Origin: Pseudomonadota bacterium
GTDB lineage: Bacteria; Bdellovibrionota_F; JAHFAK01; JBDREC01
Direction: 5' to 3'
Assembly (NCBI GenBank): GCA_043820105.1
Contig: JBDREC010000012.1
Span: forward strand, 58,078-78,077
Length of the DNA stretch: 20,000 nt
The position numbers were made by a program, and so were the translations under genes. Every line of letters begins with the position of its first letter. Position 1 is the first letter of the stretch. The notes under the pieces are model-generated. The model saw only the letters and a program-made list of their open reading frames with translations, had not been told where the DNA came from and made no database searches. Positions 17,601-20,000 of the stretch are shown in pieces.

Positions 17601-18320
17601 GTTATCTTGTAGATAGGCAAATTCTCTTTCAAAGGTAATAATATATTCATCAAGTTCCTTGCTTGAAAGCTGAGTATCAATATTAAATTGCTTAATGTTT
17701 TCAATTGTATCACCAAAAAAATCAATCCTGGCTGGATGTTTGTAAAGGCAGGAAAAAATATCTAAAATACTGCCTCTTTTTGAAAACTCCCCTGCTTCAT
17801 AAATTAGCTCTTGTCTTGCATAACCAATGCTAATAAGCTTGTTTAAAAGCTCTTCAATATTATATTCTTTTTCTTTTTCCAGTCTTATAATTGATGAATT
17901 TAAAGTTTCACTAGAAGCTGTTTTAAAAAGAAATGATTCCAAGGGACTGATAAAAATTATGGGCTCTTTTATATTATTAAGCTCATGTAAAGATCTAACT
18001 CTATTAGCTAATATATCATCACTAACTGAAACTTCTGAATAAATAGGAACATCAAGCCAGGGCATTACAATAATATTTTCAGATCCAATTTTACTATTAT
18101 TATTTGAAGCTTGTGAAATTTCTTCAGGTAAGACATTACTTAAATTTATATCAAATTTTTTAAGTACGTCTAGATAGAATTTGCAAATTTTCTGTATCTT
18201 ATAAGCTTCATCATTGTTTTTTGCAACTATTAAAAGGTCTTGGTTAGAAGTCCTAAACAGATATGTTAAGAATAAAAGTAAGGCAGAGTTTACTTCTGAT
18301 TCTACTCTAAATTTTTTCAT
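14685..18320 (-). CDS. mfd: Transcription-repair coupling factor Mfd
   Basis: UvrB-homology region (GEFSKRGSILDIF, RIDFFGD.IE.I..F...TQ.S), CarD/RID (GDYVVH.DHGVGRF), helicase motifs CGDVGFGKTEVA, DEEHRFG, TATPIPRT and QLRGRVGR, TRG motif DLEIRG.GNILG..QSG and TRCF C-terminal domain. Confidence 0.98.
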   Translation of the reverse strand: MKKFRVESEVNSALLLFLTYLFRTSNQDLLIVAKNNDEAYKIQKICKFYLDVLKKFDINLSNVLPEEISQASNNNSKIGSENIIVMPWLDVPIYSEVSVSDDILANRVRSLHELNNIKEPIIFISPLESFLFKTASSETLNSSIIRLEKEKEYNIEELLNKLISIGYARQELIYEAGEFSKRGSILDIFSCLYKHPARIDFFGDTIENIKQFNIDTQLSSKELDEYIITFEREFAYLQDNKAEMLKKTKDLFESLDFSRKEQKKFAAKLENRMYFPGIDFYGPLFYDNLSNILEYFQNRKQNPILAYSEDIYSKIEIFENSLSKKYTEVKDQNRAIFPPEMIFTRIEEFKKTLNSFGEISFSEFYSSDSVSDELRNEFKIQNSKFKIENSTETRCQSQTSEFKIQNSKFKIENSVKTIDLKEVLELALVYPNDDIQKLLEKVLQHSNFKLYFVAGNLFQAEKMSKYLESAHNLKTVILKEKDHIDLVNESPSVFPILISDIGKGFISYKNKFALITTEDLFGEKARTYRKALKSKKSAFDISDLSVGDYVVHLDHGVGRFDGLVNLKHGNLESEYLSITYSGNDLLYLPVDKIFYLQKFIKSKDSETALDRLGGKAWEAKKSKAQKMIEKVAKELVALYAQRKIIKGHAFAKRDSLLDQFEATFTFDETQDQLRTIEDVYEDMEKDVPMDRLVCGDVGFGKTEVAIRASFKASMEGYQVAIIAPTTVLVLQHYETFTKRLKNYPLKVEFLSRLQKIPKQKEIIKELSEGLIDIVIGTHKLLGEKIKFKNLGLIIVDEEHRFGVQHKEKLKLMKSKVDVLTLTATPIPRTLQFSMMGLRDLSVINTPPASRKAVKTFVSKFDELLIKEAIYNEVRRSGQVYFIHNTVRTIQAMTNYLQKLCPDVSFAYAHGQMSPNQLEKIMVDFVCQKIDCLVCSTIVESGLDITNANTMIINKADRFGLAQLYQLRGRVGRSDRIAYAYLLIPDIELITDDAKKRLKVIQRYTDLGSGFKVSMHDLEIRGGGNILGEVQSGHINAIGLELFVKMLENTIRQMKGETIDEEIDVDIKLNIPAFIPSDYMSDQNMRILYYRRFANCQDNEDVENIISELIDRMGKVPVPVSNMADLVKLKMLAKKYAIFKIDSTKEAIFIKYHETSAINAEFLLELLAGKNRVAQKLEGDVLKISHEIYPEMALVDKVMKLIKMLFINSLVK
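17083..17193. repeat. Two identical 39-bp heptamer blocks [TTTTCAA(TTTTGAA)4TTCA] 72 bp apart, in frame within mfd
   Basis: Blocks at 17083-17121 and 17155-17193 with a 33-bp spacer. They encode EFKIQNSKFKIENS twice. Confidence 0.95.
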
Positions 18321-19657
18321 TTTAGATATTCATCAAGCTTTCTATAAATTGTACGTTCAGCAACACCTAGCATTTTGGCAGTAAGATTTTTATCCCCACC
18401 TGAAAGTTTTAAAGTATCAAGAATTACCACTTTTTCAATGTCTTTCAGTGGTGTTCCATATGGAATTTTATAAACCTTTTCAGGATCTTTGCCTGAAATT
18501 GATTGAGGCAAATCATCAAGGTCTAAATGACCAGCTTTAGCTAAAACAACAGCTCTTTCAATTATATTTTCAAGTTCCCTGATATTTCCAGGCCAATCAT
18601 GTTTTTGCAGGGCCTCTAAAGCTTCGTCACTTATCCCATGGATTTCTTTATCATTTCTTTTTGAGTATTTTTCAATAAAAAAATTCACTAACAAGGGAAT
18701 ATCATCCATATGCTCTTTTAAGGCTGGAACTTTTATGTTTATTACATTGAGCCTGTAAAATAAATCTTCCCTAAATTCACCATTTTTAACAGAATCCTCA
18801 AGTTTTTTATTAGTGGCTGCAATAATTCTAACATCTACCTTAACTGTATCCACTCCACCAACTCTTTCAAATTCGCCTTCTTGTAGAACTCTTAAAAACT
18901 TAGTTTGTACCTTAAGGCTCATTTCTGCAACTTCATCAAGAAATAAGGTTCCTTTATCAGCAAGCATAAAGCGACCTTCTTTTCTGTTATCAGCTCCAGT
19001 AAAAGCGCCCTTTTCATAACCAAAAAGCTCAGTTTCAAGCAAGGACTCAGGAAGGGCTGCACAACTTAGTTTAATAAAAGGTTTTTGTTTTCTATGACTG
19101 TAAGTATGAACTGCATCTGCAACAAGCTCTTTTCCAGTGCCAGATTCACCTTCAACAAGTATTGTGGATGTGCTAGGAGCGACTTGCCTGATTATATCAA
19201 GCAGATTCTGCATAGGCTTTGAATTTCCAATTAAAAATCTTTCACTTTTAATTCTGTTTAATTCTTCTTTTAATAAGATATTTTCTTTCTTAAGTTCAAG
19301 TTTTTCAATGGCTTTTTTGATGGTCTTAACAAGCATTACCCTTTTAATTGGTTTTGTAATAAAGTCATATCCGCCGTTTTTCATAACATCAACGGCTATT
19401 TCAATAGTTCCATAGGCTGTCATCATTATAACTTCTATTTCCGGATAGAGTTTTTTAATAATTGATAAAAGCTCATCCCCAGCTATCCCTTCCATAACTA
19501 AGTCAGTAAGCACAACATCAACTTGTTGCTTTCTTATAATTTCTAAGGCTGCATTCCCAGATTGAGCTTTAAGAACAGACATGCCCTCTTTCTCTAAAAT
19601 TGTCGCAATTGAATTTAGATTCTCAATCTCATCCTCAACAATAAGGACATTTATCAT
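18317..19657 (-). CDS. Sigma54-dependent two-component response regulator (NtrC/AtoC family bacterial enhancer-binding protein)
   Basis: Receiver domain (LIVEDE, VVLTDLVM phospho-Asp, MTAYG, KP). AAA+ domain with GESGTGKE, ELFG.EKGAFTGA, LFLDEV, RIIAATN, FREDLFYRL and WPGNIREL. Fis-type HTH (A.MLGV..RTIYRKL). RBS GGAG. Confidence 0.97.
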   Translation of the reverse strand: MINVLIVEDEIENLNSIATILEKEGMSVLKAQSGNAALEIIRKQQVDVVLTDLVMEGIAGDELLSIIKKLYPEIEVIMMTAYGTIEIAVDVMKNGGYDFITKPIKRVMLVKTIKKAIEKLELKKENILLKEELNRIKSERFLIGNSKPMQNLLDIIRQVAPSTSTILVEGESGTGKELVADAVHTYSHRKQKPFIKLSCAALPESLLETELFGYEKGAFTGADNRKEGRFMLADKGTLFLDEVAEMSLKVQTKFLRVLQEGEFERVGGVDTVKVDVRIIAATNKKLEDSVKNGEFREDLFYRLNVINIKVPALKEHMDDIPLLVNFFIEKYSKRNDKEIHGISDEALEALQKHDWPGNIRELENIIERAVVLAKAGHLDLDDLPQSISGKDPEKVYKIPYGTPLKDIEKVVILDTLKLSGGDKNLTAKMLGVAERTIYRKLDEYLK

Positions 19658-19690
19658 ATATTTCTCCGAATGATTTTTTATTTGATTGGA

Positions 19691-19719
19691 AGCTTATATT
19701 TTAAGACTAAAAATTACAA
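19691..19719 (-). promoter_or_regulatory. Possible sigma70 promoter for the regulator-mfd unit
   Basis: Minus strand TTGTAA, 17-nt spacer, TAAGCT, located between the terminator and the regulator RBS. Confidence 0.4.
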
Positions 19720-19737
19720 TGGAAATATTTGGATTTC

Positions 19738-19769
19738 CCCTTGTTCCCTTGCGCTCTTGTTCTCTTGTC
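19738..19769. repeat. Octamer tandem array (CYCTTGNN)x4
   Basis: CCCTTGTT CCCTTGCG CTCTTGTT CTCTTGTC read directly. Confidence 0.8.
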
Positions 19770-19776
19770 ATTTTAC

Positions 19777-19805
19777 AAAAAAAAAGGGGTCCTAATCAGG
19801 ACCCC
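19777..19805 (-). terminator. Rho-independent terminator
   Basis: Minus strand GGGGTCCT-GATT-AGGACCCC (perfect 8-bp GC-rich stem) followed by T9. Confidence 0.93.
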
Positions 19806-19881
19806 AAGCAACTTTGCTTATGGCTAAAAATACAGGGATATGGTTTTTTGTTGACTTTGACTTGCGTCAGCGTCAACTATA
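19777..19881 (-). ncRNA. Candidate sigma54-dependent small RNA (~105 nt)
   Basis: Bounded by a sigma54 promoter and an intrinsic terminator. Contains a 5' hairpin with GCAA tetraloop, an unpaired middle and a small second hairpin. No ATG-initiated ORF on this strand within the unit. The 5' end is inferred from -12 spacing. Confidence 0.65.
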
Positions 19882-19890
19882 ATGATGATA

Positions 19891-19908
19891 TTGCAGGGTA
19901 TGTGCCAG
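19891..19908 (-). promoter_or_regulatory. Sigma54 (RpoN) -24/-12 promoter
   Basis: Minus strand CTGGCACATACCCTGCAA: TGGCAC at -24, exact GG-N10-GC spacing, TGCA at -12. Confidence 0.8.
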
Positions 19909-20000
19909 ATATATCATAGAACCATTGCTTATAATTTCAGGATGTTATGAATTAATGAATTTTCTATAAATTAAAAAGCGGCATTTGGGGTCTAAAAGGT

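Follow-up and report, generated by a model that had tools for sequence, protein, structure and literature searches.

Close to one end of the DNA analysed here (a stretch of 20,000 nt, henceforth the window), the minus strand carries what is probably a gene in its own right, encoding a small RNA (sRNA) of ca. 105 nt that would act in trans. The reading as a sigma-54-dependent sRNA, put forward in the original prediction, is supported by the presence of rpoN, by the heavy use of this promoter class throughout the genome, by a second copy of the unit on another contig (C68) and by the absence of any Rfam family at this place. It is mainly because of the C68 copy that we accept it.

The genome was assembled from a metagenome (3.81 Mb in 113 contigs, 32% G+C, ca. 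93% complete) and represents a deep-branching groundwater lineage with almost no sequenced relatives. Contig C12 (78,077 bp), to which the window belongs, terminates at window position 20000, and just 93 bp are known 5' of the sigma-54 promoter, so that an enhancer farther out, or a transcript coming in from there, would lie outside the available sequence. Past the RNA, the genes on the minus strand are, in this order, a 446-aa activator, mfd and a GT4 glycosyltransferase. The sequencing linked to the source amounts to three DNA runs from one groundwater study, with contig fragments that give no coverage of 19809-19942. Immediately past the terminator (window 19768-19737) there is a tandem array with a period of 8 nt and units of the GGAACAAG / AGCGCAAG type. 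This repeat is found at 127 places in the genome, intergenic and in many cases next to tandem arrays of other 7- to 8-nt units, and some of its copies begin right behind sigma-54 promoters.

In the mechanism that we propose, RNA polymerase carrying sigma-54 would bind the -24/-12 promoter and an enhancer-binding ATPase would open it. Transcription would start near 19881 and halt at the strong terminator at 19777, releasing an RNA in which a stretch of some 40 nt without pairing separates the 5' hairpin from the terminator hairpin and its U tail. A block of 23 nt within the unpaired part would act as the seed for pairing with mRNAs. One such mRNA would be that of a lipoprotein-like gene on contig C27, where the pairing would extend over ca. 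29 bp of the leader, ending ca. 10 nt before the ribosome-binding site, and should alter the translation or the stability of the message.

Sigma-54 promoters and the predicted transcript

The sigma-54 promoter of the GG-N10-GC type that had been claimed for the minus strand is indeed there (19892-19907). It consists of TGGCAC at 19907-19902 and CTGCA at 19896-19892, with the GG at 19906-19905 and the GC at 19894-19893, that is, with the canonical -24/-12 spacing. Scored with a position weight matrix built from other sites, it comes out rather low, at rank 14 of 100 training sites, owing to a C in place of the T at -14; judged by its letters, it would be a weak-ish promoter, yet one within the range of the sigma-54 sites of this genome. 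The absence of rpoN had been named beforehand as an argument against the whole proposal, but a profile search found the gene in the genome (a 481-aa frame whose DNA-binding domain scores 211 bits). The Sigma54_activat profile gave 33 matches, 31 of them above 98 bits, which corresponds to about 31 activator genes.

The promoter class as a whole is strikingly frequent. The pattern TGGCA[CT]-N5-[TC]TGC[AT] occurs 169 times in the genome against ca. 5.4 expected from the base composition, an enrichment of about 30-fold, and 136 of these matches (80%) lie outside our ORF map, a crude one that covers 87% of the genome and thus leaves only 13% as non-ORF sequence. Where a match is followed by a gene, this lies on the same strand in 116 of 131 cases. 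The enrichment, the intergenic bias and the common orientation together point to the use of sigma-54 promoters on a large scale. From promoter to ORF the genome-wide median is 66 nt; at this locus the distance amounts to 235 nt, and a terminator intervenes. A terminator ahead of the next gene was found for 14 of the 136 intergenic promoters, and four of these 14 form a second short family.

The members of this second family are four units of ca. 60 nt (C98:6182 on the plus strand, C105:542 and C10:21458 on the minus strand and C90:46304 on the plus strand), each with a sigma-54 promoter, then a 5' part that is unstructured and includes a common C-rich stretch resembling an anti-Shine-Dalgarno sequence, and finally a terminator. 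Three of the four have a 'TTTAACATAAAA'-like motif 5' of the unit. By eye we also noticed, on the minus strand at C49:19285, a sigma-54 promoter followed by a short lysine-rich frame behind AGGAG and then by a terminator; this promoter is located ca. 300 nt 3' of a giant activator gene.

The transcript predicted for the window would extend from 19881 to 19777 on the minus strand (ca. 105 nt), its start being placed from the -12 element and its 3' end at the end of the U tract. The architecture of the original prediction, with a first stem, an unpaired segment, a second stem and an 8-bp terminator with U9, was found at the very positions given for it, both by reading the sequence and by RNAfold. 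The 5' hairpin (19850-19877) has 6 + 4 pairs and a GCAA loop, stem 2 (19806-19819) has 5 pairs, and the intrinsic terminator (19777-19805), identified by RNAfold and by a terminator scan, has an 8-bp stem at 19805-19786 with a 4-nt loop and six of its eight pairs G-C, followed by nine T at 19785-19777. Exactly these three helices make up both the minimum free energy (MFE) and the centroid structure, with -33.3 kcal/mol and z = -4.2, and not one of 200 dinucleotide shuffles folded as well. Stem 2 is probably not functional as a helix, as it overlaps the 23-nt block, which is conserved in the C68 copy, and has no equivalent there.

One might argue that there is no RNA gene here at all, the promoter site being silent or a product of chance and the hairpin with its U tract simply the terminator of a gene that lies beyond the contig end. 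The contig stops at 20000 and would leave room for such an upstream gene on the minus strand, and the promoter is low in rank. Besides, the scan of 18000-20000 detected this terminator as the sole one, when 1.7 are expected per shuffle, so that one terminator in 2 kb is by itself at chance level. However, no minus-strand frame of at least 20 codons comes in from the contig end, and a gene that did so would have to stop at least ca. 135 nt before the terminator. The ca. 30-fold enrichment of the promoter pattern and its 80% intergenic placement also speak against a chance site, as does the joint recurrence on C68 of promoter, upstream box, block and terminator. It is the combination of features, and not the terminator alone, that exceeds chance, and we hold this explanation to be improbable.

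A second copy of the unit

When all intergenic sigma-54 sites were screened for terminators located ahead of the next gene, a paralogue of the unit came to light at C68:26514-26670 (plus strand). Its upstream box is the same, and it too has a sigma-54 promoter, a 5' hairpin, the block and a terminator of its own. The block (19812-19834, minus strand, in the window) is identical in 22 of 23 positions between the two copies and is unpaired in the predicted folds of both, which suggests it as the seed. A search of the whole genome allowing up to five mismatches gave 13 matches to it, only two of which, those on C12 and C68, have a sigma-54 promoter ahead. The C68 RNA is predicted to fold like that of the window, with a terminator after the 5' hairpin and the unpaired block (-26.0 kcal/mol, z = -3.6, none of 200 shuffles as good). 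The 5' hairpins occupy the same place, but in sequence they are unrelated, as are the terminators and the flanking genes, and a MAFFT alignment of the two copies misaligned the hairpins. The persistence of box, promoter and block while hairpins, terminators and flanks differ indicates selective conservation rather than a recent duplication. For covariation as a support of the structure, the comparison comprises just the two copies, whose 5' hairpins and terminators have no sequence in common.

The surroundings of the C68 unit are informative as well. On one side is psd, the gene for phosphatidylserine decarboxylase, in divergent orientation, and on the other a convergent FG-GAP gene. A role as a leader or as the 3' end of an mRNA is thereby excluded, and the unit stands alone. 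This bears on a different interpretation of the window, in which the promoter would be the autoregulated sigma-54 promoter of the regulator-mfd operon, the 105-nt RNA its attenuated form and the operon would be reached by conditional read-through of the terminator. The short RNA would then be a by-product, or would have a second role, as in the glmY-qseEGF operon. The RNA does lie upstream of the regulator and in the same orientation, 120 nt before its start codon, and there is a precedent in the glmY-qseE-qseG-qseF operon of Proteus mirabilis (PMC8745638). In addition, the weak sigma-70-like promoter that was said to serve the regulator separately exists as a match (9 of 12 positions, 19725-19698), but matches of this quality are at chance level (13 found, 8.1 expected), and it is the only one between RNA and regulator. 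Against read-through, the C68 unit has the same architecture with a convergent gene next to it and so works without a downstream gene. The terminator is strong, neither the MFE nor the centroid structure shows an anti-terminator fold as an alternative, and the conserved part is single-stranded and not a switch helix. We therefore regard a terminator-gated leader, the foremost of the rival readings, as unlikely.

Could the unit code for a small protein instead? The predicted RNA had been described as free of ORFs, which is nearly right. There is a minus-strand frame of 26 codons with a TTG start (19876-19796), which has no Shine-Dalgarno sequence and no counterpart in the C68 unit, where no sense-strand frame of at least 20 codons is contained. 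A plus-strand frame of 22 codons (19814-19882) starts in the block, and the corresponding plus-strand frames of the two copies agree in six of their first seven residues, an agreement that follows from their reading the complement of the conserved block. Past residue 7 they diverge wholly (22 against 48 codons), and they have neither a ribosome-binding site nor a promoter, the sequence upstream being only the complement of the terminator. In spite of the existence of both frames, a small-protein gene seems to us hardly credible, and we retain the reading as an sRNA.

Outside this genome we found no further copy. The remark that the RNA was not recognisable as a known Rfam family was borne out: at gathering scores the whole window gave no match, Qrr, GlmY, GlmZ and Pxr included, and the 14 matches below threshold were all far under their cut-offs, the best being Hrs1 on the other strand (22.7 against 56.4 bits). 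A DNA search of 40 other genomes, among them two that share the order of this genome and one that shares its class, gave only two short matches (23 and 36 nt, E 0.001-0.004), both in unrelated families. The RNA was not found in the three nearest genomes (G001-G003; 45-49% protein identity), where a 17-mer of the seed, with up to two mismatches, had one match, inside coding-like sequence and with no promoter. A scan of metagenomes for the promoter plus a 13-mer yielded 11 loci, of which five were aligned to both copies and had in common with them only the letters that the search had demanded; the same scan of species genomes gave three loci (in a Prevotellaceae, a cyanobacterium and a member of the Flavobacteriales), which we judged to be due to chance.

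The regulator-mfd arrangement, for which the original prediction had looked to relatives, is absent from the two of them in which it is readable: upstream of mfd there is a divergent gene in G002 and G003, while in G001 mfd is at the start of its contig. Mfd itself is 47-49% identical to that of the relatives. The best foreign match of the regulator (45%) is no better than its best paralogue within the genome, and for this reason no orthologue of the regulator can be named. Since no copy was found elsewhere, the comparative support consists of two copies in one metagenome-assembled genome.

Candidate activator and predicted targets

Upstream of the promoter there is an 18-nt box (19934-19951, minus strand) that recurs before other sigma-54 promoters and is a candidate site for the activator or for a co-factor. 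It precedes TGGCA by 26 nt on C12, 27 nt on C68 and 26 nt on C54, with two mismatches at most among the three, and by 17 nt, about one helical turn less, on C99, where the copy has four mismatches. Allowing up to four mismatches, the box has 73 matches in the genome, of which four are followed by the sigma-54 pattern, against 0.07 expected; as the motif was derived from the C12, C68 and C54 sites, only the C99 case is independent. The third box promoter, at C54:21347-21560 (plus strand), is followed by ca. 150 nt and a terminator. This unit contains a 32-codon GTG frame behind AGGGGG that runs through the terminator, and a gene for an activator of 1661 aa is 1.8 kb away. On C99 (6053-5830, minus strand) the sigma-54 promoter with the four-mismatch box drives a 956-aa gene, whose GTG start region is, by eye, complementary to the core of the seed over ca. 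12 nt.

Which protein might act at the box? The gene that follows the RNA (18317-19657, minus strand) encodes a sigma-54 activator of the response-regulator type (446 aa; Pfam Response_reg, Sigma54_activat, AAA_lid_14 and HTH_8), in the translation of which the GAFTGA loop, the Walker A motif and the receiver-domain aspartate are visible. Its 3' end and the start of mfd have 4 nt in common (18317-18320), suggesting translational coupling. Two activator genes are close to a box promoter, this one and that of the 1661-aa activator on C54. By analogy with GlmY and GlrR, activation of the RNA by the adjacent response regulator is plausible and makes this protein the first candidate, although we would place its chances somewhat below even. 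No activator gene is found within ca. 7 kb of the C68 copy. This is no argument against the adjacent regulator, because in the GlmY/GlmZ case, too, only glmY adjoins glrK-yfhG-glrR.

As for targets, the 39 unpaired nucleotides of the window copy were compared by RNAduplex with 3022 start regions. The best duplex, with a site on C27 (C27:4910-4942), reached -37.4 kcal/mol and the next one -28.9; the best values of ten shuffled seeds ranged from -23.9 to -29.2. Among 20,836 intergenic windows, taken from both strands, this site was again the best non-self match, by 8.5 kcal/mol. In silico it forms 29 pairs with one bulge. The site is located just 3' of a sigma-70-like promoter (10 of 12 positions) and ca. 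10 nt ahead of a GGGAG followed by ATG, and the leader has no significant structure of its own (z = -0.9). The gene thus preceded encodes a 498-aa lipoprotein-like product with no Pfam family, and the next one a protein of 1956 aa that combines an integrase-SAM-like N-terminus with Ser/Thr kinase, AAA_16, TPR, GAF, sigma-54 AAA+ and HTH_8 domains. In a genome-wide scan for ungapped complementarity the C27 site scored 40, within the null distribution (mean 38.9, maximum 45, 40 shuffles), and is accordingly not significant without the one-base bulge. A Gumbel fit to the duplex energies was discarded, as it predicted 49 windows below -30 when one was seen. Weighing all this, we propose the C27 leader as an RNA target tentatively, at not quite an even chance.

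A sequence of 11 nt that separates the -12 element from the predicted transcription start in the window (19891-19881) recurs in the same orientation at C27:4901-4911, directly ahead of the complementary site; about six such copies of an 11-mer are expected per genome. Sigma-54 activator domains are also found in eight open frames of 1670-1993 aa (on C27, C54, C10, C88, C49 and C64, and two on C90), and on C27 and C64 the gene of the giant activator comes after a lipoprotein-like gene, the two lipoprotein-like genes being paralogous. A lipoprotein-like gene on C54 was considered as a relative of the C27 target protein and rejected, the relationship being undetectable (E = 1.4).

The C68 copy could pair with a second site in the C27 leader, over the ribosome-binding site (-21.7 kcal/mol). 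Its top match among the 3022 start regions (-24.0 kcal/mol, a value that shuffled seeds also reach) lies on C64, at the start codon of a gene for a giant activator, and this gene is preceded by a lipoprotein paralogue 30% identical to that of C27. The odds that the first-ranked match of the C68 copy would fall in the lipoprotein-activator operon family are ca. 5 in 3022, a coincidence that was spotted after the fact. From these matches one could construct a scheme in which the two paralogous sRNAs link sigma-54 activators post-transcriptionally, from the response regulator through the RNAs to the mRNAs of operons made up of a lipoprotein and a giant Ser/Thr-kinase-STAND-TPR-GAF activator, acting on the C27 leader and on the C64 start codon. 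We would call this scheme speculative and rather unlikely as it stands. The sRNA, its C68 copy and the proposed C27 target are on different contigs of one bin, and Hfq was detected only below threshold (25.6 against 27 bits).

Significance and known systems

What the locus contributes is of local value: hardly any relatives of the lineage have been sequenced, and in this genome ca. 31 activators appear to be accompanied by over 100 likely sigma-54 promoters and by two or more predicted families of short sigma-54-driven RNAs. The locus described here offers a concrete circuit, composed of a promoter, a box, a seed and one outstanding predicted target, and hints that small RNAs connect the regulons of different activators. 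If this were true, one branch of an unusually large sigma-54 network would control another branch by means of RNA. On our models, the particular interest lies in the pair of paralogues and in their predicted link to the giant kinase-activator operons; if confirmed, the circuit would give a first access to regulation in this group.

Several sigma-54-dependent small RNAs provide a frame for comparison. CrcZ of Pseudomonas and Pxr of Myxococcus both belong to this class. The crcZ gene adjoins cbrB, and CrcZ acts by sequestering a protein, with no pairing to mRNAs. The RNA of the window would share with them the dependence on sigma-54, but has no Rfam match to either. The Qrr1-5 RNAs of Vibrio are short, depend on sigma-54, end in an intrinsic terminator and exist as several paralogues with a conserved single-stranded seed, and qrr1 adjoins luxO. 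The two genes are divergent, and the Qrr RNAs need Hfq. Our RNA resembles the Qrr1-5/LuxO system in the sigma-54 promoter, the terminator, the paralogues with a proposed single-stranded seed and the adjacent activator; it differs in giving no Rfam match to Qrr, in its orientation with respect to the regulator and in that Hfq is not clearly present. Control of a Qrr by sigma-54 and an enhancer-binding protein has been shown (PMC10162802).

In the sigma-54 regulome of Desulfovibrio vulgaris Hildenborough (PMC4641369) there are four non-coding RNAs, each assigned to the neighbouring activator, with entries such as "ncRNA downstream of DVU0653" and "ncRNA upstream of DVU2357". As in our case, the RNA gene adjoins the gene of an activator. 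The lineage and the sequences are unrelated, and most of those RNAs are downstream of their activator, unlike the one described here.

A close parallel in gene arrangement comes from the Enterobacteriaceae, where sigma-54 and GlrR drive both GlmY and its homologue GlmZ, and where glmY is always directly upstream of glrK-yfhG-glrR and glmZ elsewhere (PMC3045617). The operon of Proteus mirabilis cited above (PMC8745638) joins glmY to qseE, qseG and qseF. There are differences: our RNA gave no Rfam family at threshold and no match in sequence or structure to GlmY or GlmZ, the gene beside the regulator is mfd and not a kinase, and a single upstream box is visible where the GlmY/GlmZ system has three sites. 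GlmY functions as a protein decoy (PMC7073468, PMC4152352), while base pairing through the common seed seems more likely here. Sigma-54-dependent sRNAs beside activators are established through GlmY, Qrr and the Desulfovibrio RNAs, and so no new principle is involved. To judge from its letters and predicted fold, the RNA of the window would lie outside every curated Rfam family and yet work like the known sigma-54 sRNAs. As with GlmY/GlmZ and GlrK/GlrR (QseE/QseF), one copy is upstream of an activator gene and co-oriented with it and the other copy is elsewhere in the genome, both, in our case, behind a common box.
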